Assembly (NCBI GenBank): GCA_030609605.1
Contig: JAUWBY010000001.1
Location: 1 to 41,621, forward strand
Origin: Candidatus Eiseniibacteriota bacterium
Lineage (GTDB): Bacteria > Joyebacterota > Joyebacteria > Joyebacterales > Joyebacteraceae
Direction: 5' to 3'
Length of the DNA stretch: 41,621 nt
Shown here: piece by piece, positions 19,913 to 34,396 of the stretch
Layout: each line of letters starts with the position of its first letter
Numbering within the stretch: the stretch's first letter is position 1
Translations under genes and position numbers: made by a program
The notes under the pieces: generated by a model
What the model was told of the DNA's origin: nothing
Databases searched by the model: none
What the model saw: the letters and a program-made list of their open reading frames with translations, nothing else

Positions 19913-20482
19913 CTAGATTCCCATTCCGCTGGGAACGGGCCGTGGAGGAACCGTGCCGCCGGGCATACACATCATGCGCCCACGGCCACCCATTGCGCCA
20001 CCCGGGCCGCGGTTCATGCCACCGCGACCGCCCATACCGCCATGACCCATCTGCATCCCGAAGCCCTTATCAAACAGCAACTTCTGGTCATCCGTCAGGA
20101 TCTTTCGGACCGCAACGTGCTGACGGATCCTTAGCTTCATCATCTCGGCGCGCTCTTTGGAGATGTCATCAATCATGCGCTCGAGCTTCCCGAAGTCGGG
20201 TTCGTCGCCCGTTATCAATTCGCGCATCTCAAGATGCATGACCTTGATCCGGTTGGAAAGCTCAACACGTTGTTCGTCGAAGCCGCTCCGGATCTCCTGC
20301 ATCTTCTCCTGCTGCGCCTCTGTGAACGCCGGCATCGCGCCCGGCCCCATCGCCGGACCGCCGCGCATGCCGCCGCCCATGGCTCCGCTCTGGAAACCTC
20401 TACCCGCGGTCGCCGGCACGGCTGCCATTGCTGCCATCGCCAGAGCGAGCATTACTACTATGAGGCCTTTCTTCCTGCTCAT
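19913..20482 (-). CDS. Spy/CpxP/ZraP-family periplasmic protein (LTXXQ motif, periplasmic heavy-metal-sensor type) with Gly/Met/His-rich ends
   Basis: Signal peptide (MSRKKGLIVVMLALAMAAMAAVPATA). Two LTXXQ-type motifs (FTEAQQEKM, LTDDQKLLF) flank a helical core. The tails are rich in G, M and H. Confidence 0.7.
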   Translation of the reverse strand: MSRKKGLIVVMLALAMAAMAAVPATAGRGFQSGAMGGGMRGGPAMGPGAMPAFTEAQQEKMQEIRSGFDEQRVELSNRIKVMHLEMRELITGDEPDFGKLERMIDDISKERAEMMKLRIRQHVAVRKILTDDQKLLFDKGFGMQMGHGGMGGRGGMNRGPGGAMGGRGRMMCMPGGTVPPRPVPSGMGI

Positions 20483-20616: not shown

Positions 20617-20632
20617 AGCAACCGAGGTGCCA
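20617..20632 (-). promoter_or_regulatory. Sigma54 (-24/-12) promoter for the Spy/ZraP-like gene
   Basis: Minus strand reads TGGCAC-CTCGG-TTGCT, a perfect match to TGGCAC-N5-TTGCW. Located in the 329-bp gap after the sigma54-dependent response regulator gene and about 135 nt upstream of the ATG at 20482. Confidence 0.65.
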
Positions 20633-20811: not shown

Positions 20812-22152
20812 TCAGGATTCTATCTCGTACTCTCTGATCTTGTTCTGGAGAGTTCTGCGCGAAATGGCCAGGATCTTCGCCGCGTGAGTTCTGTTGCCCT
20901 CAGTCTGCGCGAGGGTCTTGATGATGATGTCACGCTCCATTTCGCGGATCGTCATACCCGTCTTTTCTCCGTCCACCTCGGAGTCTGGAATCGCCTGAAG
21001 CTTCGCTGGAAGTTGCTCGGGGAATACTGTCTCGCCACGAGATAGAACCACGGCACGGTGTATGGCGTTCTCGAGCTCCCGGACGTTCCCGGGCCAGTCG
21101 TAGTTCATCATGATTCGCATCGTCTTGGGTGACATCCTCTTCGGCTTCGTGCCTTTCTCGGCGTGCTTCTTGAGAAAGTGCTCCACGAGGAGCGGTATGT
21201 CCTCCTTGCGGTCCCGGAGCGGCGGTATGACAATGGTCACGACATTGAGTCGGAAATAGAGGTCTTCACGGAAGCTGCCGTCGACGACGGCAGCATCGAG
21301 ATCCCGATTGGTCGCGGCCACTATGCGGACGTCGACAGTGATATCGACCGATCCGCCCACGCGTTGAAGGGTGTGATCCTGCAGAAAACGGAGCAATTTG
21401 GCCTGTAGCTCGGACGACATGTCGCCGATCTCGTCCAGGAAGATGGTCCCGCCCACCGCCAGCTCGAACCGCCCCCGCTTCTGCCGACCAGCGCCGGTAA
21501 AAGCGCCCTTCTCGTGGCCGAACAACTCGCTCTCGAGAAGACCTCCTGGAATGGCCGAACAGTTCACGGCCACAAACGGCTTGTGTTCGCGTGGGCTCGC
21601 CCGGTGTACCTCGTGCGCTATGAGCTCCTTGCCTGTCCCGCTCTCGCCGAGGATGAGAACCGCGGCATCGCTCGTGGCGACGCGGCGAGTCAGCTCCAAC
21701 ACCTCCCGCATTGCGACGCTCGTCCCGATGATCTCACTCGAGGGCTTGATCTCGGGCGGCTTCTCCTCAGTCACCCCGGACGACTCATCGGTGAATCTCG
21801 ACACAACCGAACGGACCTCGTCGATATCTATCGGCTTCGTGATGTAGTCAAATGCCCCGAGCTTCATGGCCTCGACCGCGGTCTCAACCGACGCATAGGC
21901 CGTCATCATGATGATGCCGCAGTCCGGACTCGCCTTCTTCATCCGTCCCAGAGCCTCAATGCCATTGATACCCGGCATCCGGATGTCCATTATGACCAGG
22001 TCGTGAAACCCGCCCGCCAACTTCTCGACGCCGCTCTCCCCGTCGGGAGCGACCTCTACCTCATGACCATCGCTCTCGAGCACGGCCTTGAGAAGCTCAC
22101 GCACACTCGACTGGTCATCAACCACAAGAATTCTGAGGCGATTCTCCACCAT
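20812..22152 (-). CDS. Sigma54-dependent response regulator (NtrC/ZraR/AtoC-type: REC + AAA+ + Fis HTH)
   Basis: REC domain (ILVVDDQ...[11 protein letters not shown]), Walker A GESGTGKE, the GAFTGA sigma54-contact motif, Walker [19 protein letters not shown] and a C-terminal HTH ([17 protein letters not shown]). Start set at ATG 22152 (AGGGGAG SD); the ORF is open to GTG 22197. Confidence 0.9.
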
Positions 22153-22223
22153 CCGGACATGCTCCCCTATGCGATCCGATGCCGGCTGCTCCGGCACTCC
22201 ACGCTGCCCTGACAGGGCAGCCG

Positions 22224-24071
22224 CTAGCGCGAACCTGTACCCGGTTCCCCGCGCGAAGCTCTGAACACCATAGAGAACGTAGTCCCCTTCCCCTTTTCGC
22301 TCACGACATGGATGTGCCCGGCGTTCTGCTCGACGAGTCGCGAGACTATCGTCAATCCAAGACCGGTCCCGGTCGGCTTCGTCGTGTAGAACGGTTCGAA
22401 CAGCTTCGTGAGGTCCTCCTCGCTCATTCCCTCGCCTGTATCTGCGATATCGATGGCGACCTGCTCCGGCTGTTCGCCTGCGGTCGCGGCGGTCGCGCTA
22501 TCCTCGGGAACAACGATTCTCGTCTTCACCGTAAGCGTCCCGCCGTCCCTCATCGCTTCCATGCCGTTCAGAAGCACGTTGAGGAGCGCCTGGCGCACCT
22601 GCCTCGAATCCACGAGGATGCGCGGTAGCCCGTCAGGCAGGTCGGTGACGATTCTGACGTTCTTGAAATCCGCGTCCTCCGACACGAGCGAGAGCGCGTC
22701 CTCGACGATCGCGTTCGTATCGCCCGGACGGATCTCGGCAACGACGGGCTTCGCGAAATCAAGCAGCTCCTGCACAACTCGATCGAGTCGCTCAACCTCC
22801 TCGATCATGATATCGGAGTATCGCTCTTCCTCGGAGCCCGGGCTGAACTTGCCGCGAAGGAACTGCGCGAATCCCTTGATCGAGCTGAGGGGATTCCGCA
22901 CTTCGTGGGCCACGCCGGCCGCCAGCCTGCCAAGGGAGGCCAGGTGACGCCCTCGCTCCAGCTCGGCCTTGAGCGCCTCGATCTCGCGCAGGTCCTGGTA
23001 GAGCAGAACCGTTCCCGCTCGCTCACCGTCCTCGTCACGGAGTAGCGATGCGCTGACCGAGACGGGGATCTTCTCCCCCGCTACCACGGCTGTCGCCTCC
23101 ACTTCAGCTATGTCCTTCTCACCCCGAAGCACCAGATCCACTCCCGCCCGCTCGGGACCCGGCTCGAGACCGGCCACGCCATCAAGGCCTCGGCCGGCGA
23201 CCTTCGCGTTGCCCAGTCCGAACAGGGCACGTGCCCGGGAGTTGATGGTCACAACACGACCGTCGGCGTCGACGGATACCAGCCCGTTCGCCATGCTCTC
23301 TATGACGTTGTCCGTATATGTGCGCATATTCGCAAGCGCCGTCTGCGTCGAGCGGTATGCGGACACCACGAAGAGGAAGTAGATGGCCGCTCCGCCAACG
23401 ATGGTCAGGATAATGCCGAGCAGGACAGTGCGATTGCGAGAGAGAAGGAACGTCTTCTCTATCTCCGTGGGGTCGAGCGCCACGACGCCGTAGAGACGTG
23501 TTGGATGCAACAGGTCGATCGGCCTCCCCAGAAGCTCGGACAGGCGTCTGGCGACAGCCTCTATGTTACAGGGCGGCCTCATCCTGTGGCCGAACCTCGG
23601 TGGCGGCCTCTCACAGAGCATCGCGGGATGTATGTCGAAGGCCGTCACGTACTGTTGAAGAGTATGCCCGCCAATAGTGACGCGCTTCCTGCGGATGGGT
23701 GACGCATCAGGCCCATCTTGCCCCGGCAACCACCCGATGTGAGGCGCTCCGACCATTGCAGTATCGCTGTGTGCGACGACGGTTCCGTCGAAATCGAGAA
23801 GGGCCAGGTACTCAGCCTGGCCGCGGTTGGCAGCCTCGGAGAGAAAGAACTCAAGACGTGACAGCTGCCATCGTGGCGAGACGAGTTCGGTTCTGAGATC
23901 GGTACTCAGGAACATGAGCATGGCCCCGGCCTTGCGCTCCAGTCCGTCCGCCACGTGCTGCCGCCCCCTATCGATGTCGCGCATCGAAGTGAACACGACC
24001 ACGGCCGCGACGACGAAAACCCCGATGATGATCGACGTGATGGGAATGTAAGTGTTTCGGAACGTTCTCAA
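22224..24071 (-). CDS. Sensor histidine kinase (two TM segments with periplasmic loop, PAS, HisKA, HATPase_c)
   Basis: H-box HEVRNPLSSIKGFAQFL, N-box LLNVLLNGMEAM, G-boxes DTGEGM and GTGLGL, and two TM helices flanking a region of about 190 aa. The annotated start is a TTG at 24071, so the start is uncertain. Confidence 0.85.
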   Translation of the reverse strand: MRTFRNTYIPITSIIIGVFVVAAVVVFTSMRDIDRGRQHVADGLERKAGAMLMFLSTDLRTELVSPRWQLSRLEFFLSEAANRGQAEYLALLDFDGTVVAHSDTAMVGAPHIGWLPGQDGPDASPIRRKRVTIGGHTLQQYVTAFDIHPAMLCERPPPRFGHRMRPPCNIEAVARRLSELLGRPIDLLHPTRLYGVVALDPTEIEKTFLLSRNRTVLLGIILTIVGGAAIYFLFVVSAYRSTQTALANMRTYTDNVIESMANGLVSVDADGRVVTINSRARALFGLGNAKVAGRGLDGVAGLEPGPERAGVDLVLRGEKDIAEVEATAVVAGEKIPVSVSASLLRDEDGERAGTVLLYQDLREIEALKAELERGRHLASLGRLAAGVAHEVRNPLSSIKGFAQFLRGKFSPGSEEERYSDIMIEEVERLDRVVQELLDFAKPVVAEIRPGDTNAIVEDALSLVSEDADFKNVRIVTDLPDGLPRILVDSRQVRQALLNVLLNGMEAMRDGGTLTVKTRIVVPEDSATAATAGEQPEQVAIDIADTGEGMSEEDLTKLFEPFYTTKPTGTGLGLTIVSRLVEQNAGHIHVVSEKGKGTTFSMVFRASRGEPGTGSR

Positions 24072-24251: not shown

Positions 24252-25064
24252 TCAGTACTCACGGAGCGTCCCGGTGACCCTGGCGTGATCGCAACCGCGC
24301 CTGAGGACCACGAGACCCACCACCACCGAGACGGCAGCCGAAATGAGGAGAAAAACGAGATGCGTGGCGGTGCCGGCGTCGTGAACCGGCCCGCGAAACC
24401 CAGCGCGGGCCACCGGAAGAACGTGCGACGTCGGAAGCATCCACGCCACTCTCCGCAACCAGACCGGGAGAAGAGATACGGGGAAGTAGACACCGCCCAA
24501 CAGCCCCGAGAGCGCTCCAAACGCCCACGACACAGGTTCTCCCTCTTTGAAGACCGTCGTGAGTCCGGCCGAGATGAATCCGATCCCACACATCGTCAGA
24601 GAATAGAGGACCACTGCCGTCAGCGCCGGGAGTGTGACCGGAATCGTCACACCCAGAAGACCTGAGACAATCACAGCCAGTCCGAGCGCCACCCCCTGAG
24701 CGATCATGATCTCCGACAGCCCCGCAAGGAGCACGAGCAAGGCAACGGGCCTGCCGCTCGATACGAGTTGCTCGAACGTGCCCTGTAGTTGTTCCCGCCT
24801 GACCGTCTTACGGAAGGCATGCAGCCCGGAAGCAGAAACACCGTGCACGACTACGCCGATGAGTGCGAAGGCCGTGTAGGTCATTCCCACTTCGTCCTCG
24901 AAACCGGACCCCGCCAGCTCTACGACCCTTCCCACAAACAGGAAGGTGATGGCAGACAGGAGAAGTGATGCAAATCCCAGAAACAGTTTTGACCGGTAGC
25001 TTGCATAGGTCGCGACGCTCCTGACGACAAACGCCCAGCCGAGATTGATGACATCCCGCGACAT
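24252..25064 (-). CDS. ABC-2 type transporter permease
   Basis: ATG at 25064 overlaps the ATPase stop by 1 nt (TGATG). About six TM helices in 270 aa, which is ABC-2-like topology. The longer ORF to 25259 is Arg-rich and non-protein-like. Confidence 0.65.
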   Translation of the reverse strand: MSRDVINLGWAFVVRSVATYASYRSKLFLGFASLLLSAITFLFVGRVVELAGSGFEDEVGMTYTAFALIGVVVHGVSASGLHAFRKTVRREQLQGTFEQLVSSGRPVALLVLLAGLSEIMIAQGVALGLAVIVSGLLGVTIPVTLPALTAVVLYSLTMCGIGFISAGLTTVFKEGEPVSWAFGALSGLLGGVYFPVSLLPVWLRRVAWMLPTSHVLPVARAGFRGPVHDAGTATHLVFLLISAAVSVVVGLVVLRRGCDHARVTGTLREY

Positions 25065-25780
25065 CACGAGTGCTCCACAGACGGCTGAGCGGCCACCGGC
25101 TGCTGCAACAGCTCGGGCGACGAGATGGAATCGGATCCGGGTGATGGCAACTCGACGACCTGGTCGCAGAAGCGCGATCCCTCCATTCTGTGAGTCGCCA
25201 TCACTAGAGCGCACCCGTCGCGCAGTCTTCGCTCGATCGCGGAACACACGAGAGCGCACCCGGTGACGTCCAGAGAGGCGAACGGTTCGTCAAGAAGAAG
25301 GAGCGATGGAGTGCCGAGGAAAGCTCTCGCCACGGCCAGCCGCGCGCCCGTTCCCCTGGACAGTCGCCCGGCGCGCATATTCAGCCATGGTTCCAGATCC
25401 AGTTCGTCCACAACGCAGTCCATGGCAGAGGACAGCTCTCTGCCCCAAAGCCCGGCCAGACGCCCGAAGAACGTGAGATTCATCCTTGCGGTCAGCCTTA
25501 CGTAGAACGAGCGTTCGGCGCCCAGAGAGACTCCGACACGGCGTCGAACATGCGTCGATGCGTGCCTCACGTCGAAGCCGCAGACGATGGCCGACCCGCA
25601 CGATGGCATCAGGAGACCGGCCGCGATACGGAGCGCCGTGCTCTTCCCGGCTCCGTTCGGACCGACGAGAGCGATCGCCTCCCCCGCTGCTACCGTGAAG
25701 CTGAGATCTCTCAGTGCGTCCAGCCGTTGCCCGCGACGCCGGAACTGCTTCCCGACATCGGAGAACTCCACGATCCTCAT
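25064..25780 (-). CDS. ABC transporter ATP-binding protein
   Basis: Walker A GPNGAGKST, signature-like LSRGTGARL, Walker B LLLLDEPF, H-loop ATHR. ATG at 25780 has a GGAGAGG SD. Confidence 0.85.
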   Translation of the reverse strand: MRIVEFSDVGKQFRRRGQRLDALRDLSFTVAAGEAIALVGPNGAGKSTALRIAAGLLMPSCGSAIVCGFDVRHASTHVRRRVGVSLGAERSFYVRLTARMNLTFFGRLAGLWGRELSSAMDCVVDELDLEPWLNMRAGRLSRGTGARLAVARAFLGTPSLLLLDEPFASLDVTGCALVCSAIERRLRDGCALVMATHRMEGSRFCDQVVELPSPGSDSISSPELLQQPVAAQPSVEHS

Positions 25781-25817
25781 CGGTTCCTCTCCGTCGATCC
25801 GATGGATCTTCCCCCCC

Positions 25818-27206
25818 TCATCGCTCCTCCTCATCCACCACCGTGCGGAACTCCCACGCCCCGACACTCCGTGTGCTCGCGCTCACGATGATGAGATCAT
25901 CTTGGCCGTCGCCGTTCACGTCGCATACGAGCACATCGGATGCCCCCACGCCATCGGGAAGAGCGACGATCGCTTCGCCTGTCCCACGCGCCAGCACTCC
26001 GACGCGTCGCTCGTGCCAAGCCACGATACACGGCACGACGCCTCCGTCCAATCCGGCGGCCGCCAGTTCGACGAGCACCGGCGCATCGTAGACATCACCC
26101 CCGATATCGAGTTCCCAGACACGCTTCTTCCACTTGGGCGTCGCCGCATACAACAGGCCGTCACTGCAGCCAAAGATGAGTTCACTGCCGGTTGAACCGT
26201 CCACGTCGACAGACAGCATCTCGCCTATCGGTTCCCCGGTCCTTGCGATCGCGTTTCTGATGAAGCGCGGCAGCCGTCTCTTTGCGAGCACTTCCTTGTG
26301 AGACTCGTTCCCGAACCGCATGCGAACCAGTTCATCACCCGTCTCCCCATCTAGGACAACAAGTGCGCCGGCGAAGCAACCGACGGCGACTTCGTTGTAT
26401 CCGTCACCCGTCAGATCCGCAACAACGGGCAGATTGCTGGCGACACCTTCAGGGTACATGCGACCCTTCTCTCCCAGCTTCGAGTCCCAGAGATCCTCGC
26501 CGGCCGATGAGACACAGGTGAGGACGTTTGCGTTCTCCACAACCAGGATCTCTGACGTTCCGTCCCCGTCGATGTCGGCGCAAATGAGTTTCGACAATCC
26601 ATCCCCAAACACGCTGCCGTCGTGCGGAGTCGTTCTTCTCCAACGCTCGACCAATCCGGGAAGTCCTATGGCCACAAGATCGTCGCCCTCATCGCCGCGG
26701 ACGGTCAGAACGATGACCTGCTCTCCGTATGTCGTTCGCACAATACCAACGTCACGAACCTTCCCCGATAGCTCACACCCAGCGAGAGCCTCGCCCGTCG
26801 CACCGCTCTGAACCAGGACCCTGTGCCCAGAACACCTCACGACCTCCTCCCCCGGGGACGCGAGGAGATCGGCCGTGAGCGTGCCGGCCGGATCCGTGTA
26901 TGCGACACGCCAGATCTCAGCTCCGGATTCAAGCTCGAGGGCGACCACTGTGGAGGATTCCCTCCCCTTTCCCATTGTCACGAGAACCTCGCGAATCCCG
27001 TCCCCGTCGAGATCCACAAGAAGCGCGTCGGCGATGTTTGCCCCTGAAATATCGAGGCTCGTCGCCCACAGCTCGCCTAGAGTCACTGCGCCGGCATCAA
27101 CCTGCGCCGCGGTGAGTGCCCCGGCGCACAGGATTGCCGCGATGGTGACAACACATGTCGATCGCCTCGCTACGCCCTCCGCAGAACACCCACCCACGGC
27201 TCTCAT
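25818..27206 (-). CDS. Secreted FG-GAP/VCBS-repeat beta-propeller protein
   Basis: Signal peptide, then five DxDxDG-type repeats: VDLDGDGIRE, ADIDGDGTSE, ADLTGDGYNE, VDVDGSTGSE, CDVNGDGQDD. The AGGAGGA SD overlaps the stop of the preceding peptide gene. Confidence 0.7.
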   Translation of the reverse strand: MRAVGGCSAEGVARRSTCVVTIAAILCAGALTAAQVDAGAVTLGELWATSLDISGANIADALLVDLDGDGIREVLVTMGKGRESSTVVALELESGAEIWRVAYTDPAGTLTADLLASPGEEVVRCSGHRVLVQSGATGEALAGCELSGKVRDVGIVRTTYGEQVIVLTVRGDEGDDLVAIGLPGLVERWRRTTPHDGSVFGDGLSKLICADIDGDGTSEILVVENANVLTCVSSAGEDLWDSKLGEKGRMYPEGVASNLPVVADLTGDGYNEVAVGCFAGALVVLDGETGDELVRMRFGNESHKEVLAKRRLPRFIRNAIARTGEPIGEMLSVDVDGSTGSELIFGCSDGLLYAATPKWKKRVWELDIGGDVYDAPVLVELAAAGLDGGVVPCIVAWHERRVGVLARGTGEAIVALPDGVGASDVLVCDVNGDGQDDLIIVSASTRSVGAWEFRTVVDEEER

Positions 27207-27215
27207 CTCTTCCTC

Positions 27216-27383
27216 CTAGTAGTCGACGAGACAGACGTCTCTGTTGCCGCAGCTGCCGAAATCGAACCCGCACTGATCGACAGAACCGCAGTCTCCCCAG
27301 TCAATGAAGATGTAGCACAGGAGCGAATCCGGTGCTGCACCCGACGAATCTGAACCGCTGTTCGCCAGCCTGAGATGATTCAT
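27216..27383 (-). CDS. Putative RiPP precursor peptide B (55 aa)
   Basis: ATG at 27383 with GGAAGGAG upstream. Translation MNHLRLANSGSDSSGAAPDSLL-CYIFIDWGDCGSVDQCGFDFGSCGNRDVCLVDY. Paralogous to peptide A, with five Cys each followed by Asp 3-5 residues later. Confidence 0.55.
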   Translation of the reverse strand: MNHLRLANSGSDSSGAAPDSLLCYIFIDWGDCGSVDQCGFDFGSCGNRDVCLVDY

Positions 27384-27420
27384 CCCTTGATCTCCTTCCC
27401 GCACGCGGCTGTCCATACAC

Positions 27421-27591
27421 CTACCCCGTGTCAATGAAGCAGTTATCATGCTGCTCACATCCGCACCCTGCATCCAGGATCCAGCAGAGATCCGACGAAG
27501 GACACTGCGAGTAATCGACGAAACATATCTCGCTCACGTCCGACTTCGCCGCGACTTCAGCCGCCCCTCTGATGCCGTTCGCCAGCTTCAT
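27421..27591 (-). CDS. Putative RiPP precursor peptide A (56 aa)
   Basis: ATG at 27591, 11 nt after the radical SAM gene stop, with GGTGAGG upstream. Translation MKLANGIRGAAEVAAKSDVSEI-CFVDYSQCPSSDLCWILDAGCGCEQHDNCFIDTG. Six Cys residues. Confidence 0.55.
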   Translation of the reverse strand: MKLANGIRGAAEVAAKSDVSEICFVDYSQCPSSDLCWILDAGCGCEQHDNCFIDTG

Positions 27592-27602
27592 GTGCTTCAA
27601 CC

Positions 27603-30116
27603 TCACCACCCCCTCTCCCGCACATTCCCTTTGCCACCTGCTTCTTCCCGCGGGCGATCCCGCACATTTGCCCCGCCACCTGCTTCCTCCCGCGGGCGAT
27701 CTCCCACACTTGCCGCGCCGCCTGCCTCGCTTCGCCCTCGTCCACGCAAGCGTCTCCTCTGCTCCTCAGGCAACCCCGCGTATAGCCACATTGAAAGCTC
27801 AATGATCCTCCTCCTGACGGAGCACCGCACCGCATCGTGCCCCGACGCTTCTCCCGGCATCGTATCAAGATCGTGATGGCAGGGTCCTCCGCACAGGTCG
27901 TGCGCCCAGCAGTCCAGACAAGCGGACGATGCCGCTCGCAGCTTCTTGAGCAACGACGTGATCGCCCGGCGGTCGATGCCGCTTGCCACGTGCCCGACGG
28001 CGAAGCGATCGTCACCTGCGAATCTGTGGCAGAGATAGAGCGTCCCGTCCGTCGCAACAGAGAGATAGCGCGCCCCGGCGCCACACGGAGAATCGCGGCG
28101 AGACCCGCGCGCCAGGAGCGCCATCGGCTCGGTGAAACTGCTCACCGATGGGCGCGAGCCGCTCAACAGTACATCACGTTCCGCTTGGGCAAGCGCTTCG
28201 AACTCAGAGCAGAGCCGCTCCGCGAACCCCCTGCTCATGCTCGATCCGCTCACAGGAGCCAGATGCACGGTGGAAAACCCGAGCCCCGCAAGATGCGCCA
28301 CAAGCTCGGTCAGAGGTTCTGACGACTCCGTCACCGTCGCCCTAACCCCCACGCTGAAACCGGGAGGCAGCTCCGTCAGGTTGCGGACGATACTCGCGTA
28401 GGACCCCTTGCCGTTGCGAAAGCGTCGGTTCGCATCGTGGTCCTCTTCGCAGCCGTCCATGCTGATCAGACAATCGATCCCGAGCTCGGCGAGAAGCCTG
28501 GCGGTGCCGGGAGTGAGCAGTGTTCCATTCGTTGTCATATGGAAACGGATATTCCGCCCCACCTCCGTGGCACGCTCTCGCGCGTAGCGAACGACTGGAC
28601 GAAGCATGTCCGTCGCGAGGAGCGGCTCTCCTCCAAAGAAGATTATCGATATCTCCGGCTCTCCGAACGACTCGCGTATCAGGAGGTCAATAGCCCTGAA
28701 AGCCACGTCCTCCGCCATGGTCTCACCAGCCGCGTTCTCTCTACGACGTCCGGCGCCCGTCTGTGAAGCTGCCAATGTTCCGAGGTAGCAGTAGGTACAC
28801 GAGAGATTGCAGGCGTTGCTCACGTTAAGCGCCAGCGATTTGATGGAGATCTCGATCTCTGAGGCCCGTCTCCCGCTCCGACGGGGCTTCCCCCCCGGCG
28901 CCAATCCCCCGACTTCGGAGATGGCGGTTTGGACGGAGGCAGCGCCGTGGTTGAGTTCGAGGACCGCTCGCTCGGTCACGGGCGCTCTTTTCGCGAGCCA
29001 CCTGATGGTATCTGCCGCGACGGCATCTGCTTCAAAAAGGAAGCCGGACGCGGGATCGAACGCGAATTCCTTTCCGTCCACGCTGAATGTGTGGAGCTCG
29101 CGCCCTGCGAGGATCGCGTGCGCGAGTGAGTCGTCCGGTTCTCGGCCGTTCGGGTTTTCTCCGCGCCCTGGACTGCTCGCGGCGGCCAGCGCCTCGAGTG
29201 AGAGGCGACGGGTCATTCTGGCGTTGCCCGAGGTGGCATCGTGAAGCACAGAGCTCAGGAACTCAGCAAGCTGCGGACAAGGCAGACTCTCAGCTGTACT
29301 GAGAGCCTGCGCATAACACGATTCCATTGTCCCGGTGACTCTCTCAAGAGCACCTGACTCGGCCGCCATCCTGAGAAGACCTCTCGCAGAGAGCTTCTCC
29401 GGAAGCTCCTTGCACCCACTCCACGTGAGGAGCATCCACACGGTCGCCGACGGGCGGCCAGCCGCCAGATCCTCACCAAGATCGACCAGATCATCAGCCA
29501 ACTGGTAACCGGCGTGGTACTCCTCGATGAGTCGCTCCATAGCAGGAAGAAGATCCGGGCGCCCGCCAAGAGTGGCTACCGCGGCGGCGGTAACCTTCAG
29601 CGGTGACATCTTCCTTCCCAGAAGGAGAAGCGTACTGTCGAGTTCATCGTCCCCAACGGCTCTGACGCCTCCCTCCTTGTGATGAACCGACTGTTCCCAC
29701 TCGAGGCTCAAGAAGTACTCGTCCATGAACCGGTCGTAGTGCTGCCAGAATTCGCTCTCCCCCGGGAAGAGCTCAGCGTACAGGCGGACGAACTCGCACA
29801 GACACCTGTCGCAAAAGTCGAGCGCTCTCGGGTCGACGCCCCTTGTGCCGTCCAAGAGCTCGTCCTGCGAGAGGAAATGCGCCGTGGCGAATGCGTTCCC
29901 CAGAGACATGACTCTCGCCGCATCGCCGTCGCCTTCAAAACGGATGCCTTCTACCAGAAGGAATGGGAGAGTAACGGCGATGTTCGTCGATCTGATGCCC
30001 CTGTCCGACATCGCGCTCTCCAATCGAAAGCGACTGACGGACGACTCAAAGCCGGTCGCGACGCGGCGCAATTCCTCTCGCATGTCGAATCGGCTTTGCG
30101 TGCTGGATGACGACAC
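27603..30116 (-). CDS. Fusion protein: N-terminal polyprenyl-synthase-like (class I isoprenoid fold) domain + RRE-like segment + radical SAM + SPASM domain + repeat tail
   Basis: - aa 78-89: AHFLSQDELLD, FARM-like.
- aa 203-217: GYQLADDLVDLGEDL, SARM-like DDxxD, about 123 aa after the first motif.
- aa 341-375: HTFSVDGKEFAFDPASGFLFEADAVAADTIRWL, a PqqD/RRE-like N-extension common in peptide-modifying rSAM enzymes.
- aa 435-442: CNLSCTYC (CX3CX2C, nt ~28791-28814).
- GGEPLL follows.
- SPASM: CGAG...LYLCH plus CLDCWAHDLCGGPC (CX2CX5CX3C).
- Start uncertain: GTG 30116, ATG 30083 or ATG 30011. Confidence 0.85.
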   Translation of the reverse strand: MSSSSTQSRFDMREELRRVATGFESSVSRFRLESAMSDRGIRSTNIAVTLPFLLVEGIRFEGDGDAARVMSLGNAFATAHFLSQDELLDGTRGVDPRALDFCDRCLCEFVRLYAELFPGESEFWQHYDRFMDEYFLSLEWEQSVHHKEGGVRAVGDDELDSTLLLLGRKMSPLKVTAAAVATLGGRPDLLPAMERLIEEYHAGYQLADDLVDLGEDLAAGRPSATVWMLLTWSGCKELPEKLSARGLLRMAAESGALERVTGTMESCYAQALSTAESLPCPQLAEFLSSVLHDATSGNARMTRRLSLEALAAASSPGRGENPNGREPDDSLAHAILAGRELHTFSVDGKEFAFDPASGFLFEADAVAADTIRWLAKRAPVTERAVLELNHGAASVQTAISEVGGLAPGGKPRRSGRRASEIEISIKSLALNVSNACNLSCTYCYLGTLAASQTGAGRRRENAAGETMAEDVAFRAIDLLIRESFGEPEISIIFFGGEPLLATDMLRPVVRYARERATEVGRNIRFHMTTNGTLLTPGTARLLAELGIDCLISMDGCEEDHDANRRFRNGKGSYASIVRNLTELPPGFSVGVRATVTESSEPLTELVAHLAGLGFSTVHLAPVSGSSMSRGFAERLCSEFEALAQAERDVLLSGSRPSVSSFTEPMALLARGSRRDSPCGAGARYLSVATDGTLYLCHRFAGDDRFAVGHVASGIDRRAITSLLKKLRAASSACLDCWAHDLCGGPCHHDLDTMPGEASGHDAVRCSVRRRIIELSMWLYAGLPEEQRRRLRGRGRSEAGGAASVGDRPREEAGGGANVRDRPREEAGGKGNVRERGW
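27613..27740. repeat. About three tandem 42-bp units at the 3' end of the radical SAM fusion gene (14-aa GANVRDRPREEAGG repeats)
   Basis: Read directly: ...GCCACCTGCTTCTTCCCGCGGGCGATCCCGCACATTTGCCCC / GCCACCTGCTTCCTCCCGCGGGCGATCTCCCACACTTGCCGC..., with a more degenerate third copy. Confidence 0.8.
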
Positions 30117-30243
30117 GGTTGGAATGACCCATTGGGGAAGATCTGATGATCAGGAGCTGAGTACACGGGGTTGGAATCCGCGACCGGGAGCGGGCGTCAC
30201 CGCTGACCACAGGTCGGCAGCACTTCCTGGAGAGCCTGCTGGA

Positions 30244-30259
30244 AGCAAGTTGCTGACCA
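30244..30259 (-). promoter_or_regulatory. Weak sigma54-like -24/-12 element proximal to the radical SAM gene
   Basis: Minus strand reads TGGTCA-GCAAC-TTGCT. GG-N10-GC spacing is correct and the -12 TTGCT is perfect, but the -24 hexamer has three mismatches. About 130 nt upstream of GTG 30116. Confidence 0.3.
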
Positions 30260-30312
30260 GTTCGTGTGGAGCTCACACAAACTCCATCGCAGGCAGCACG
30301 TCCGGGCACAAT

Positions 30313-30451
30313 ACAGAGTGCGGCGTGGCCTCATGACCACGCCGCGCTCTGTCACAACTGTCTACTTGGATTACACACTGCACTGCTCTATGGCTCCCGA
30401 GCATAGAGCAGCCGGCAGGCGGACTGTGGAAGAGCGTTCGCGCCTGCCGGC
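30313..30451 (-). other. Three consecutive strong hairpins/inverted repeats in the non-coding leader region
   Basis: - 30313-30352: 16-bp stem with one mismatch (ACAGAGTGCGGCGTGG / CCACGCCGCGCTCTGT).
- 30383-30411: perfect 10-bp arms CTGCTCTATG / CATAGAGCAG.
- 30411-30451: perfect 10-bp GC-rich arms GCCGGCAGGC / GCCTGCCGGC with a 21-nt loop. Confidence 0.6.
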
Positions 30452-30873
30452 CTCGTGGGCTGGATCCCATCCTTGGGAGGAGAGTGCTTCTGACCAAGGT
30501 CGCCGTTCGGATGGAATCCGGGTGGAGAGCAGTTGGTGTTGCCGCGTCGGTGTCACTCCTTGCTGTTGCCGGTTCTTCTTCTCTATTCCCTACAGCTACC
30601 GCCAGGTGCCAGGAGATTCGGTAGCTGTCTAGATTCAGCCGAGGAACGGCGAGGCTATTCCGATGAGCAGGATTACTATTATCACTTTGACTCTCGCCGC
30701 GCTCGGCATGGCTACTCTCTCTGTTCTATGTCATCTCCCCGATGAATCCGGAGAGCCTGTGGTTCCTGGAAGGGAGGAGGGCCATAGAGCGACCGGACTC
30801 GCCCCCCTGATAATTTCACTCACGGCCACACCCCCTTCCAAGTCCTGTTGTCAAAGTTCTAACCCCTCTAAGG

Positions 30874-30888
30874 GCAGGGATCGTGCCA
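30874..30888 (-). promoter_or_regulatory. Sigma54-type -24/-12 promoter motif, distal, facing the RiPP-like operon
   Basis: Minus strand reads TGGCAC-GATCC-CTGC. The -24 TGGCAC is perfect, GG-N10-GC spacing is correct, and the -12 is CTGC versus TTGC. Confidence 0.45.
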
Positions 30889-31200
30889 GTTCGTGCTGAT
30901 TGACTCCCCATTCGTGCACCTGTGCAGTACCGCTAACCCGCTTACTGGCCGTAAGTTACGCTGCTGACGATTTAGGCGGCCAACACTCAGCAAAAGGAAC
31001 GGTGGCAGGTTCTTGACACCGCACGACCGATGCAGATGGGATTCCTGGTAACTTCTCCCTACAGCAGTGGTTACGCGACCGTCACGTTTGTGACGCTCTG
31101 TCGAAGATCTGACGGTCTCGGAAGCCTTCCGGTGACGCGCGGATGCCTGTCGAAGACCTGTCGGTGCTGATGCGGCCGGCCGGACAGCTCGGAGCGACAA

Positions 31201-31227
31201 CGAAAACCGGGCCGCTTCCGGCCCGGT
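31201..31227 (-). terminator. Rho-independent terminator of the TPR/sigma54-activator gene
   Basis: Minus strand reads ACCGGGCCG-GAAG-CGGCCCGGT followed by TTTTCG. Lies about 70 nt downstream of the stop at 31298. Confidence 0.6.
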
Positions 31228-31297
31228 CTGGGAACATCGTTTCGACGCTGCTGCCGCATCGACGAGAGGCTCGCACCGCCCCGCTGAGACACCACGC

Positions 31298-34200
31298 CTA
31301 TCCGATTCCGTGCTTCTTCATCTTCGCGTGCAGGCCTGTGCGCGACATCCCCAGGATCTGAGCTGCCTGCTGCTTGTTCCACCCCGTGCGATCCAGCGCT
31401 TCGAGAATCCGGCTTCGTTCCAACGTAACGACCTCATCCTTGAGCGACCGGGGGCGACTCTCATCGAGTTCGCTACCGGCTCCACCTTCAGCGCGAACCT
31501 TCAGTTCGGGGCTCATCTTGTCGATGCCGATGGTCTCGCCGCTCTTGGTGAGCGCGACACCGCGACGGACCTCATTCTCCAACTCCCGCACGTTGTTCCC
31601 CCGCCATCCATACCTGAGGAAGAGCTCCTTCACTTCCCGGCTGAACCCCACGATCGCTTTTCCCTCACGCTTCGCGTAGTACTCAAGGAAGTGATCCATC
31701 AGAGCCGGGATATCTTCAGGGCGGTCCCTCAGTGGTGGAAGCTCAACTGTAATAGTGCAGAGTCTGTAGAAGAGGTCTCGCCTGAATCCGCCGTTCTCCA
31801 CCTCCTGCCGAAGGTCCTTGTTCGTGGCGGAGATGACACGGGCGTTGCTCGTCCTCGTAACGCTTTCTCCTACCCTCCGGAACTCGCCATTCTGGAGGAA
31901 TCTCAGAAGCTTCACTTGAAGCTCGGGACTCATCTCCCCAATCTCATCGAGGAAGAGCGTTCCATCCGCCGCAGCCTCGACAAGGCCCTGGCGATCCCGG
32001 TCGGCATCCGTGAAAGCGCCGCGGACGTGGCCGAAGAGCTCGCTCTCCTGGAGATTCGGAGCGATGGCCCCGGAGTTCAGAGCCACGAACCTCCCGGTCG
32101 CCGTCCTGCTGCCGGAGTGAATGGCCTTCGCGATCAGTTCCTTGCCCACACCTGATTCGCCACGTATTAGAACCGGCACGTGGCTGTCCTTCAGCTGCTC
32201 GACGGTCGCGAGTATCTGGATCATCTCGGGACTTCGGGTGATAAGCCCGACGGTCTCCGCTGAGTCAAGGAGTCTGTCGGCCTCCTCCCCTGTCGACCGC
32301 GCGACGATTGACCCACCGACTCGAGAATGCATGAGGCCGAGCATCCGACCGACAGCGCCGACGAACTCCACGTCGCTCTGTGTGAAAGCAACTGATCTGT
32401 CGGTCCGGGAGCGGTCTACGTACACAAGGTAGACTGGTTTGCTGTCGAGGCCGACTTCCGCCGGTATCAGCGCAAGCGCGCCGACTTCGGATGGAGTGAA
32501 AGCGCCGTCTGAGTGTCCATTGCTGACGACTAGAGGACGCGAGTGGCCCCGTTTCGAAACGGTCGTGCGCACAAAGCGGCATGCGTCCGAGACTCCTCGT
32601 CCCGTTCTGTCGACAGACGTCACCACCGACGGCGTCCCTCCGTCCACAACCTGAAGGAGGACCAGCCGGTCGACGGACAGCGCACCTGCCAACTCCCCGG
32701 CGAAGCTATGCAGATCGTCGGGGCTCGGTTCGGCCGTCTCGAGAAATCTATAGCCCTCTGCAATCAGTGCGTACCGACCCCGGCGCGCGATTCCTGCGTC
32801 AGCCAGAGCCACATCCAGTTCCATGAGTGCGGCATCGATCTCGGCGAGACCGTGGCAGTCGTGCGCCACCTCAAACCTGAGTCTTGCACTCTCCAACCAC
32901 CTGCGCGCGCGATCCGGCAATCCGCTCGCCTTGAGCGCCTTGCCGCGTTCGAACTCACATCGCGCCACCCAGTTCGGGAGGCCGATGCGCGCAAAGGCTG
33001 CGGCCGCGGACGAAAGCCGGGCCTCTATGAGATCGATCGGCGGTTCGTCACCAGTCGACGATTCCCTGAGACCAATGCCTTCCGCGAGCGCTGCCCTTGC
33101 CAGCTCGAACGATTCCCCAATGCGACGCAGTATCTCCTCGGCCCTATGGATGAGAACCTCGGCAGTCGTCCGTTCACCCTTGGCGTAGCAGACGCTGGCC
33201 AGCACGCGGAGTGTTGCACCCTCTTCGAGGCTGTCGTTGATCTCGCGCGTGAGCTTGATGCCGTCCGAGCAGTCACGCTCGGCCTCGTCGAACCGACCGA
33301 GTTCCATGTAGACCTCGGCGCGCCGTCTCAGAACCTCACCGACGACATCGCTGTTCGACGAAAGCCTGTACGCGCACCCGAGAGCTCGATTGAGGCTCCT
33401 CAGCGCCTGCTCGTGCTCGCCGCGGTCCATCTCCAAATGGCCGATGAACTCCAAAGCCAGAGCTTCAGCCCTCAGGTACCCCTTCTCCTGGCTTGCAGAA
33501 AGGGCGTTCTGGAAAAGTCTCTGTGCCTCGCCCCACTCACGCCGTATACGGAGGATGTTACCCAGTGCGGACTCCGCTGCCACGAGGCCACGAGTCGCAC
33601 CGATCCGCCCGTAGAGGCTGCGCGCTTCGTTCAGCTTCTCCTCCGCTTCGCTCCAGCGGGAGAGCTTGTAGAGGATGATACCGAGGTTGGTAAGACGGTC
33701 GGCGATCGCCATCGTGTGACCGAGCTTCCGGTCGATGGTGAGAGCGTTCTCGATGTACTCAAGCGCTCCGTGGAAGTCGCCCGACCGCTTGGCCAACACA
33801 CCGAGGTTGTTGTAGGCGGAGGCGAGTCCGGCTTCATCGCCAAGACGCTTCTGTGTTACCAGGTAGTCAGTGAAATAGTCGCGCGCCGCCTTGATGTTGC
33901 CCAGCTCAGCGTTTGCGATGCCGAGTACCTTGCCTGCCTCCGCCAGAAGCGGACTCTCGGCCCTCGTTTTCAGAATCTCGTAGGCCTTCTGGGCCGCCCG
34001 CAGCGCCTCATCGTAACGACCGCTCTCGATCTCGACGCGGGCGAGCACGACGTTCGCTTCAGCCCACGCTGATCCATCATCCTCGCTGAGATCGAGATCG
34101 TCCAGCTTCGCGCAGTAGCGCCTGGCGTCATCGTAGCCGCCGAGCCCCAGGTAGCACTTCGCGATGTTGACCAGGAGACCCGCAGACTCAGGGTCGGTGA

Positions 34201-34396
34201 GCTTCTCACGAAGCTCACCGGCCTCGGTCCGTTCGAAATAGCTCAGCGCGTCAGTGTAGCTGTCGGATTCGAGATAGACATCGCCCAGGCGCATGGCCGC
34301 GACTGCGGCGTCTCTGCCGCTCCGCGATTCGAGCGCTTTCTCGAACGCTTTCAACATCTCGCGTTCCGGCGCACTGTCATTTCTCTTGTTGCTCAT
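31298..34396 (-). CDS. Sigma54-dependent transcriptional activator with a large N-terminal TPR array and central sensory region (TPR + GAF-like + AAA+ + Fis HTH), 1032 aa
   Basis: The N-terminal ~480 aa carry repeated TPR-like A..Y......G....A...... helix pairs. AAA+ domain: Walker A GESGVGKE, GAFTDA (a GAFTGA variant), Walker B LFLDEIGEM, RVISATNKDL, LPPLRDRPEDI. C-terminal HTH: WNKQQAAQILGMSRTGL. Confidence 0.9.
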   Translation of the reverse strand: MSNKRNDSAPEREMLKAFEKALESRSGRDAAVAAMRLGDVYLESDSYTDALSYFERTEAGELREKLTDPESAGLLVNIAKCYLGLGGYDDARRYCAKLDDLDLSEDDGSAWAEANVVLARVEIESGRYDEALRAAQKAYEILKTRAESPLLAEAGKVLGIANAELGNIKAARDYFTDYLVTQKRLGDEAGLASAYNNLGVLAKRSGDFHGALEYIENALTIDRKLGHTMAIADRLTNLGIILYKLSRWSEAEEKLNEARSLYGRIGATRGLVAAESALGNILRIRREWGEAQRLFQNALSASQEKGYLRAEALALEFIGHLEMDRGEHEQALRSLNRALGCAYRLSSNSDVVGEVLRRRAEVYMELGRFDEAERDCSDGIKLTREINDSLEEGATLRVLASVCYAKGERTTAEVLIHRAEEILRRIGESFELARAALAEGIGLRESSTGDEPPIDLIEARLSSAAAAFARIGLPNWVARCEFERGKALKASGLPDRARRWLESARLRFEVAHDCHGLAEIDAALMELDVALADAGIARRGRYALIAEGYRFLETAEPSPDDLHSFAGELAGALSVDRLVLLQVVDGGTPSVVTSVDRTGRGVSDACRFVRTTVSKRGHSRPLVVSNGHSDGAFTPSEVGALALIPAEVGLDSKPVYLVYVDRSRTDRSVAFTQSDVEFVGAVGRMLGLMHSRVGGSIVARSTGEEADRLLDSAETVGLITRSPEMIQILATVEQLKDSHVPVLIRGESGVGKELIAKAIHSGSRTATGRFVALNSGAIAPNLQESELFGHVRGAFTDADRDRQGLVEAAADGTLFLDEIGEMSPELQVKLLRFLQNGEFRRVGESVTRTSNARVISATNKDLRQEVENGGFRRDLFYRLCTITVELPPLRDRPEDIPALMDHFLEYYAKREGKAIVGFSREVKELFLRYGWRGNNVRELENEVRRGVALTKSGETIGIDKMSPELKVRAEGGAGSELDESRPRSLKDEVVTLERSRILEALDRTGWNKQQAAQILGMSRTGLHAKMKKHGIG

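Follow-up and report, generated by a model that had tools for sequence, protein, structure and literature searches.

What would a single protein do that carries an isoprenyl-synthase-like domain at one end and a radical S-adenosylmethionine (rSAM) peptide maturase at the other? The question is raised by a gene in a contig of Candidatus Eiseniibacteriota bacterium (JAUWBY010000001.1, assembly GCA_030609605.1), of which we analysed positions 1 to 41,621, a stretch of 41,621 nucleotides referred to here as the window. An initial annotation, made from the sequence alone, had described an open reading frame (ORF) on the minus strand at positions 27603–30116 and a series of motifs in its product, and all of these are found where it had put them (Table 1): AHFLSQDELLD, containing a first Asp-rich motif (FARM); GYQLADDLVDLGEDL (residues 204–217, also written YQLADDLVDLGEDL), containing a second one (SARM), with a distance of 123 residues from D85 to D208; HTFSVDGKEFAFDPASGFLFEAD (residues 342–364), resembling PqqD and the RRE, the recognition element of peptides that are ribosomally synthesized and modified after translation (RiPPs); CNLSCTYC (residues 436–443), which provides C436, C440 and C443 of a CX3CX2C motif; and CLDCWAHDLCGGPC (residues 733–746), of the pattern CX2CX5CX3C, which with C678, C696 and C765 makes up the seven Cys of a SPASM domain. 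The answer that we propose, and to which we give somewhat better than even confidence as a joint claim, is that the protein is a bifunctional RiPP maturase giving a Trp-prenylated, Cys–Asp thioether-bridged peptide. The product would probably be lipidated and multiply cross-linked, a type of peptide that has not been described so far. The fusion is not an assembly artefact, because 19 of 21 related loci carry it as a single ORF of 800–970 amino acids with the parts in the same order and CX3CX2C present; the remaining two loci end at contig edges. These 21 loci were obtained from a scan of species-representative genomes and all come from Candidatus Eisenbacteria or from unclassified metagenome-assembled genomes (MAGs), and among them the fusion protein is 40–86% identical.

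The fold of the N-terminal domain (N-domain) was not apparent from simple searches: Pfam gave no match to the domain alone at E-values up to 10, and a single-sequence phmmer search of the PDB returned one weak match, to a farnesyl diphosphate synthase (E 0.008). Structure and profile searches placed residues 1–315 among the trans-type isoprenyl diphosphate synthases (trans-IDS) and the all-alpha indole prenyltransferase Ord1 only, in agreement with the isoprenyl-synthase-like domain that had been proposed. A first AlphaFold2 (AF2) model, made from three sequences and with a predicted local distance difference test score (pLDDT) of 70, already matched polyprenyl synthases only. With an alignment of 60 sequences the model reached a pLDDT of 89 and a predicted template modelling score (pTM) of 0.88, and each of its top 50 Foldseek matches in the PDB was either a trans-IDS or Ord1, at template modelling (TM) scores of 0.55–0.73. 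A sequence profile of the domain likewise found trans-IDS chains only in the PDB, with E-values down to 2.7e-6. The profile alignment pairs QD85xxxD89 with the FARM (DDxxD), K169 with the ‘KT’ lysine, QxxDDxxD with the SARM and D216..G..T with the conserved trans-IDS segment that follows it, and the G167–K174 region aligns with RKTA of the heptaprenyl synthase 9kp1_B. A kinship with squalene/phytoene synthases, considered on account of a QL..D.GED..GR string, was rejected after the structure and profile searches gave trans-IDS alone.

A lone DxxxD string is to be expected by chance, and such strings do occur elsewhere in the same domain, namely DRFMD, which the window protein has in common with P0003, a close orthologue, and DDELD, present in P0003. 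The Asp positions of these two strings are less than 60% conserved in an alignment of 143 domain copies representing the family, and the FARM and SARM differ from them because they contain the most conserved positions of that alignment. D89 is present in all 143 copies, D216 in 142, D85 in 140, D212 in 139, D208 in 138 and D209 in 126, so that D85, D89, D208, D212 and D216 are each at least 96% conserved; K169 is K or R in 135 copies, K174 is found in 130 and Q205 in 117, and W124 and P51 are likewise conserved. The Asp-rich motifs are thus kept in orthologues and distant relatives alike. Only the second position of the FARM varies among relatives (E/R/G/D). In the window protein it is Glu, and the resulting DExxD had been regarded as a degenerate motif. 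It is no weakness, because the FARM of StheQ, a characterised homologue of ComQ, is the same D-E-x-x-D, in which D85 and D89 hold Mg2+-diphosphate (bioRxiv 10.64898/2026.08.29.745113). In StheQ, K174 and Q212 also contact Mg2+-farnesyl S-thiolodiphosphate (FSPP)/diphosphate (bioRxiv 10.64898/2026.08.29.745113).

The initial annotation knew ComQ as the only peptide-modifying member of this fold. Others are known, namely PalQ (2023), the ChrPC P domain (2024) and StheQ (2026), and we take these to be closer relatives of the N-domain than ComQ is. From its sequence relationships we regard the domain as a homologue of the PalQ-type prenyltransferases, and neither as a member of the ComQ family nor as a canonical synthase. 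PalQ of Paenibacillus alvei (Miyata et al. 2023, PMC10853753) is a prenyltransferase acting on a C-terminal Trp, and its Q197 recognises the indole NH. BLASTP aligned the N-domain with a stand-alone protein from a Paenibacillus genome (P0053/P0194, hereafter P0194) at 34% identity over 184 amino acids (E 2e-25), and hhalign aligned the Eisenbacteria domains with the PalQ-type family of Paenibacillus to which P0194 belongs over 231 columns at 99.8% probability (E 6.4e-29). The gene for P0194 adjoins a NHLP-type precursor ending in ...RTLGSW and two histidine kinase genes, which is the layout published for the palQ–palX–palP cluster (PMC10853753). The P0194 family is widespread in Paenibacillus, its members being annotated either as ‘terpene synthase’ or as ‘class 1 isoprenoid biosynthesis enzyme’, and in 95 of its approximately 118 members the Gln of Q..DD..D is residue 197, in register with Q197 of PalQ. 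The PalQ family and the N-domain share LPFWL-type, QDxxxD, K..P.K and Q..DD..D...D motifs, whereas the family-specific Trp residues W59 and W204 (P0194 numbering) are Leu in the N-domain. Both systems combine an all-alpha trans-IDS-like fold with a nearby ribosomal precursor containing a conserved Trp and with a histidine kinase in the cluster. PalQ, however, is a stand-alone protein of approximately 310 amino acids that binds the NHLP leader itself, whereas here the domain is fused to RRE, rSAM and SPASM domains and the leader is short.

According to a 2026 review, the trans-IDS-like peptide prenyltransferases include ComQ, PalQ and the ChrPC P domain, which are all Trp-specific and have a Gln upstream of the second motif (PMC13290415). 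The N-domain has Q205-x-x-D208 at this place, comparable to Q197 of PalQ, Q216/D219 of Ord1 and Q212 of StheQ. Compared by description rather than by sequence, ComQ of Bacillus and StheQ of Sphaerobacter, whose peptides are ComX and StheX, have the same fold as the N-domain, prenylate a peptide Trp and are associated with a two-component sensor, but have no fusion partner; the DExxD of StheQ is identical to that of the N-domain. The domain does not belong to the ComQ family (InterPro IPR033965), which is defined by a pseudo-SARM, because DDxxD (D208-D209-L-V-D212) is kept where ComQ has NDxxx. ChrPC/NctPC (Hubrich et al. 2024, as described in the review PMC13290415) offers a precedent in architecture: by that description a trans-IDS-like domain is fused to a second RiPP-tailoring domain and acts on an internal Trp, but the partner is a class II terpene cyclase, absent here, instead of an rSAM/SPASM maturase with an RRE. 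The lanthipeptide prenyltransferase MppC was rejected as a comparison, being of the ABBA type.

In the C-terminal part, besides a Pfam Radical_SAM match and a weak SPASM match, the best NCBIfam models were PapB (E 5e-76), QhpD, the nif11-peptide maturase and the SCIFF maturase, all under their equivalog cut-offs. The full-length models align from approximately residue 340, those of QhpD and the SCIFF maturase from their own position 1–2. In the PDB, phmmer aligned residues 341–780 with residues 7–450 of CteB (5wgg, E 6.7e-47), the N-terminal part of which we take to be its RRE. From these CteB- and PapB-type matches and the presence of all seven SPASM Cys, residues ~340–790 are therefore, as far as sequence can tell, an RRE, rSAM and SPASM maturase of the thioether (ranthipeptide/SCIFF) group. 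The features that mark a ranthipeptide-type maturase, an RRE, CX3CX2C and a SPASM domain with two auxiliary clusters, are all in place, and the earlier proposal of a thioether-type enzyme is borne out by these matches as well as by the substrates described below. PapB, which makes freyrasin, cross-links CX3D motifs of PapA, and it shares with CteB (the SCIFF enzyme) and the window protein the RRE, the CX3CX2C motif and the seven-Cys SPASM domain; the repeated Cys-Xn-Asp motifs of the window's substrates resemble the CX3D of PapA. The window protein differs from both in its additional 330-amino-acid N-terminal enzyme domain and in the mixed Cys–Asp spacing of its substrates.

Two Cys/Asp-rich ORFs with good ribosome-binding sites, encoding precursor peptides A and B, lie directly downstream of the fusion gene. 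The TTG start of A at 27600 was inferred from orthologues, GTG 27609 and ATG 27591 being alternatives. We aligned 19 type-A and 21 type-B peptides; nearly all complete loci encode both types. A leader motif, HL[RK]xAN, is common to the two types, and their invariant cores read C..DY..C...D.CW..D....C...D.C..D in type A and C....DWG.C...D.C..D...C...D.C..DY in type B. Each core contains five invariant Cys-X2-4-Asp pairs, in which X2, X3 and X4 spacings are mixed, corresponding to the repeated Cys...Asp/Glu (or similar) donor–acceptor motifs that mark ranthipeptide substrates, at least as judged from the sequences. Apart from Cys and Asp the invariant residues are Tyr (both types), Gly (type B) and exactly one Trp per type, found in 19 of 19 type-A and 21 of 21 type-B peptides. 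It had been cautioned that each peptide has one Trp and that the two do not align with each other. Both statements are correct, but the caveat has lost most of its force because within its own type each Trp is as conserved as the residues of the cross-links. A third precursor is present in some loci (L006 9677–9853, L010 8334–8504 and L016 10963–11133; e.g. ...EICRIFIDWGGCSAVDYCGSDVAGCAAADFCHLDY). The copy at L006 has Phe in place of the canonical Trp (FIDFGG) and contains a Trp further on (DWC).

Taken together, the following sequence of events can be envisaged. The central RRE would bind the shared leader of both adjacent precursors, and the PapB/CteB-like rSAM/SPASM part would form a thioether bridge in every one of the five Cys-X2-4-Asp pairs of each core, so that a product of ranthipeptide type results. 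The N-domain would hold a prenyl diphosphate through Mg2+ at D85/D89, with K169 and K174 helping to ionise it, and would alkylate the peptide, most probably at the single invariant Trp of each core oriented by Q205/D208. The prenylated, multiply thioether-bridged peptide would then be exported by the adjacent ATP-binding cassette (ABC) transporter. The inferred elements of this scheme are the act of prenyl transfer, its acceptor, the donor's chain length, the reaction order and the thioether chemistry.

Several points weigh against the proposed Trp-prenylated, thioether-bridged product. PalQ requires a terminal Trp, whereas the Trp here is internal and lies in or beside a predicted thioether ring, at positions that differ between A and B, and the conserved Trp could instead be structural or be a target of the rSAM enzyme. 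The Paenibacillus family is called PalQ-type from its synteny, its genus and the register of Q197, and not from the sequence of PalQ itself (K4ZRG6). The pseudo-SARM of the ComQ family binds no metal, whereas the N-domain keeps the DDxxD found in chain-elongating synthases. As to the other half, the PapB model NF047865 scores 256 bits against an equivalog cut-off of 340, because of which the exact chemistry of the cross-link is not assured. There is also no leader peptidase in the cluster.

A profile of three sequences, the N-domain and two homologues, searched against 1.84 billion representatives at E-values up to 1e-3, retrieved 658 proteins; an earlier word-indexed search had given just two partial Eisenbacteria homologues. 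Among the best 150 of the 658, 112 are stand-alone proteins of approximately 310–330 amino acids, 17 are fused to an active rSAM/SPASM maturase and about 15 to a SPASM-bearing scaffold lacking CX3CX2C, five of the latter with an additional squalene-hopene-cyclase-like domain at the N-terminus. A squalene-hopene-cyclase-like (SQHop_cyclase) domain is present in P0021, P0028 and P0044. In all five decayed-rSAM proteins whose motifs were examined (P0020, P0021, P0022, P0028 and P0030) both Asp motifs are kept, and this persistence argues for the helical domain as the part responsible for catalysis in those proteins. Stand-alone relatives match polyprenyl_synt or terpene synthase (Terpene_syn_C_2) models of Pfam below threshold. 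One of them adjoins LanM genes and a Nif11-like precursor ending in ...SCDCASW, and another adjoins an rSAM gene and a NHLP precursor ending in ...EAICEW. Some fused relatives are accompanied by a second rSAM/SPASM protein, TPR proteins, Rce1-like proteins, a polyketide synthase (PKS) and precursors ending in ...CDSDWCLYG or ...NCGVWG. In an independent lineage of prenyltransferase–rSAM fusions (L033) the arrangement of FG-GAP propeller and ABC genes recurs, and the precursor contains ...DKCWIDFASGC.... Altogether seven precursors from six other loci with relatives of the domain were collected, and in every one a Trp is located at the C-terminus or close to it (...CASW, ...ICEW, ...LGSW, ...CGVWG in two copies, ...DWCLYG and ...KCWIDF...).

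The alternative that survives best also takes the N-domain for an active transferase, of prenyl or another diphosphate ester, working on the peptide, but with an acceptor other than Trp, i.e. a Cys thiol, a Tyr, an Asp carboxylate or a terminus. Evidence from fold, motifs and context applies to it exactly as to Trp prenylation. The Tyr of DY is invariant in both cores, some related precursors have CaaX-like ends (CASW, CLYG), Rce1-like CPBP proteases occur in related clusters, and close orthologues have a sixth, non-invariant Cys. We nevertheless think such an acceptor distinctly improbable: every characterised trans-IDS-like peptide prenyltransferase is Trp-specific (PMC13290415), the indole-recognition Gln is conserved here, Trp is what the seven additional precursors have in common, and all five invariant Cys are paired with Asp, as thioether formation would lead one to expect.

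It could also be that the N-domain is a catalytically silent helical scaffold serving in substrate or leader binding, dimerisation or membrane association, and that the protein makes thioether cross-links only. The initial annotation had offered a fold repurposed for leader binding as its own alternative, which now appears unlikely. The lack of a Pfam match and the variable second position of the FARM would suit a scaffold. Non-catalytic recognition domains are frequent in RiPP enzymes, and the RRE shows that such domains are in use in this very protein. A scaffold would, however, not be expected to have the metal- and diphosphate-binding Asp and Lys as the most conserved positions of its family. 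Homologues also occur as stand-alone enzymes of the PalQ type, and in relatives it is the rSAM part that has decayed, with the Asp motifs retained in the five examined. We consider this explanation to have a low probability, below that of a non-Trp acceptor. Finally, the closest solved structures are chain-elongating synthases, the full DDxxD of the SARM is kept and relatives give sub-threshold Pfam matches to polyprenyl_synt (PF00348; 17–24 bits against a cut-off of 27, the gathering score not being reached by the N-domain either) and Terpene_syn_C_2, but an isoprenyl diphosphate or terpene synthase that makes a small-molecule isoprenoid, e.g. a donor for another enzyme, and leaves the peptide untouched is very unlikely, given that in the one profile alignment examined LPFWL stands where such synthases have the IPP (isopentenyl diphosphate)-binding GGKRxR, that no conserved RRG was seen after D89 on reading the sequence by eye rather than the alignment, that the domain is conserved in its fusion with a peptide maturase containing an RRE and is found next to precursor peptides in independent lineages, and that Pfam reveals no other prenyltransferase in the cluster.

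The fusion of a trans-IDS-like prenyltransferase domain with an rSAM/SPASM peptide maturase is a new combination and not a new category, because ChrPC already joins such a prenyltransferase to a terpene cyclase. Peptide prenylation by trans-IDS-like enzymes is known from a few stand-alone or cyclase-fused proteins (ComQ, PalQ, ChrPC-P and StheQ), and ranthipeptide thioethers are known separately. A full-text literature search found no report of an rSAM–prenyltransferase fusion or of a prenylated ranthipeptide, though the ChrPC paper may mention such architectures. If prenylation and thioether bridging do take place in one protein, the system would represent a new lipidated polycyclic hybrid RiPP scaffold and a compact two-in-one tool for peptide engineering, and would be a natural test of a leader-recognition domain shared between unrelated catalytic domains, since the RRE could serve both active sites. 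Genome-mining pipelines miss the lipidation step because neither Pfam nor NCBIfam has a model for the domain family and because NCBI names close relatives of the fusion protein only ‘radical SAM protein’.

Table 1. Features of the fusion locus, with positions in the window
Feature	Position	Strand	Basis and remarks
Fusion gene, 837 aa	27603..30116	(-)	ORF list; domain order: prenyltransferase-like, linker, RRE, radical-SAM, SPASM, repeat tail
N-terminal all-alpha domain of trans-IDS fold, PalQ-like prenyltransferase domain	29172..30116 (residues 1-315)	(-)	AF2, Foldseek, profile, BLASTP, hhalign
First Asp-rich motif Q84-D85-E-L-L-D89, FARM equivalent, predicted Mg2+/diphosphate site	29850..29867	(-)	Conservation, trans-IDS alignment, StheQ likeness
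G167-R-K169-M-S-P-L-K174, equivalent of the trans-IDS ‘KT’ diphosphate-binding lysine region	29595..29618	(-)	Conservation, profile alignment
Second Asp-rich motif Y-Q205-L-A-D208-D209-L-V-D212-L-G-E-D216-L, SARM equivalent, Gln one turn upstream	29466..29507	(-)	Conservation
RRE (PqqD-like leader-recognition) domain	28842..29099 (residues ~340-425)	(-)	phmmer to CteB, NCBIfam model starts
Radical-SAM core	28092..28841 (residues 426-675)	(-)	Pfam Radical_SAM 3e-16; CX3CX2C 28788-28811; FFGGEP 28623-28640
SPASM domain, seven auxiliary-cluster Cys (C678, C696, C733, C736, C742, C746, C765)	27816..28091	(-)	
Charged C-terminal tail, 42-nt tandem repeat	27603..27743 (residues 792-837)	(-)	Tandem Repeats Finder (TRF)
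Precursor peptide A, MKHMKLANG...SEICFVDYSQCPSSDLCWILDAGCGCEQHDNCFIDTG	27421..27600	(-)	19 orthologues
Precursor peptide B, MNHLRLANSG...LLCYIFIDWGDCGSVDQCGFDFGSCGNRDVCLVDY	27216..27383	(-)	21 orthologues and paralogues
FG-GAP/PQQ-like beta-propeller protein, syntenic partner	25818..27206	(-)	Pfam; syntenic in 19 loci
ABC transporter, probable exporter (ATPase 25064-25867, ABC-2 permease 24252-25259)	24252..25867	(-)	Pfam, synteny
PAS histidine kinase (22224-24071) and sigma54-dependent response regulator (20812-22197)	20812..24071	(-)	Pfam
TPR, sigma54-interaction (AAA+) and Fis-HTH activator upstream of the operon	31298..34396	(-)	Pfam; 62-96% identity in 20/21 loci
Operon leader	30593..30889	(-)	sigma54-type -24/-12 element, structured RNA, small ORF (sORF), stem-loop; conserved in the window and 21 loci
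sigma54-type -24/-12 element CTGGCACGATCCCTGCC	30873-30889	(-)	19/22 sequences by regular expression, all by alignment
Structured RNA	~30710-30860	(-)	Invariant hairpin GGGGGGCGAGTCCGGTCGCTCTATGG 30782-30807 within covarying outer stem; second hairpin 30733-30757
24-aa hydrophobic sORF MPSAARVKVIIVILLIGIASPFLG	30635-30709	(-)	22/22 sequences
Covarying stem-loop	30593-30627	(-)	

The surrounding locus is conserved. In order, it consists of the TPR–sigma54 activator gene, the operon leader, the fusion gene, precursors A and B, and the genes for the FG-GAP propeller, the ABC ATPase, the ABC-2 permease, the PAS kinase and the regulator, and every gene of the cluster was matched in 17–21 of the 21 loci. 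The PAS kinase was matched in 17, and a high-identity copy of the regulator follows it in approximately 15. That the locus is conserved together with its two-component system and sigma54 activator may point to a core role in signalling or in the envelope, more than to a sporadic antibiotic cluster. The propeller protein looks secreted and always follows the precursors, and possible roles for it include processing, binding and immunity; a propeller is also encoded at L033 8068–9396, together with a Rce1-like protease and an S8 peptidase.

The charged repeat of 14 amino acids noticed at the C-terminus of the fusion protein is indeed present, as 2.2 copies of a 42-nt unit, but is no conserved protein feature. 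Between close orthologues the copy number of the minisatellite (27616–27725) differs, distant orthologues have unrelated tails, and in L002 the 42-nt repeat is translated in another frame and joined to the precursor-A ORF, and a functional protein motif was rejected on the grounds of these differences in copy number and reading frame. Each unit holds the palindrome CCCGCGGG, and the repeat looks more like a variable minisatellite situated just upstream of the ribosome-binding site of a precursor.

The operon leader shares its strand with the fusion gene and lies approximately 770 nt upstream of it. A scan of the whole window for sigma54 motifs gave matches not above chance level, and it is only for its conservation in orthologues that the site upstream of the operon is given weight. 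The consensus structure of the leader RNA has six compensatory pairs, and the C-terminal segment of the sORF, VILLIGI[AV]SP[FV]LG, is near-invariant. A search of Rfam with positions 27000–31400 returned only spurious matches below threshold. The leader could encode a small membrane peptide or could act as an attenuator or a riboregulator. An ORF of 78 amino acids on the plus strand (30663–30899) was also considered; its conservation in tblastn is explained by the minus-strand sORF and the leader RNA, and it is probably not a gene.

One can go further and read locus and family jointly, as a phylum-wide, ComQXPA-like peptide-pheromone system of the uncultivated Eisenbacteria and a large unexplored family of lipidating RiPP maturases. 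We put this forward tentatively, with the chances clearly leaning against it. Were it true, the product of the operon, driven by sigma54, would be a peptide with a prenylated Trp and five thioether bridges, belonging to a new hybrid class of RiPPs, the ‘prenylated ranthipeptides’. The ABC transporter would export this peptide, the syntenic PAS histidine kinase together with the sigma54 response regulator would sense it, and the 658 clusters (50% identity) of the domain would have recruited active or decayed rSAM/SPASM modules and, in some cases, class II cyclase-like domains.

Some relatives of the domain deserve mention on their own account. In a contig of a spore-forming Firmicute (L030 4584–7988) a PalQ-like gene of the stand-alone kind is flanked by an rSAM gene and a gene for a geranylgeranyl-reductase-like flavoprotein, followed by a NHLP-type precursor that is truncated at the contig edge; the arrangement suggests prenylation of a peptide and subsequent reduction of the prenyl chain. 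P0028 (L025 173–3526) and P0021 (L026 6713–9958) are proteins of approximately 1100 amino acids with, in order, a squalene-hopene-cyclase-like domain, a PalQ-like domain, an RRE and an rSAM-like scaffold without CX3CX2C but with SPASM kept. Their genes adjoin a Rce1-like protease; one locus or both also have a separate active rSAM/SPASM protein, a TPR protein and a large PKS, and L026 has precursors ending in ...NCGVWG. These may be cyclised-prenyl RiPP systems in which a ‘pseudo-rSAM’ serves as the peptide-binding module. Within the window, a perfect sigma54 consensus, TGGCACCTCGGTTGCT, occurs at 20617–20632 on the minus strand, just downstream of the sigma54 response-regulator gene and upstream of a small ORF on the same strand (19913–20482).

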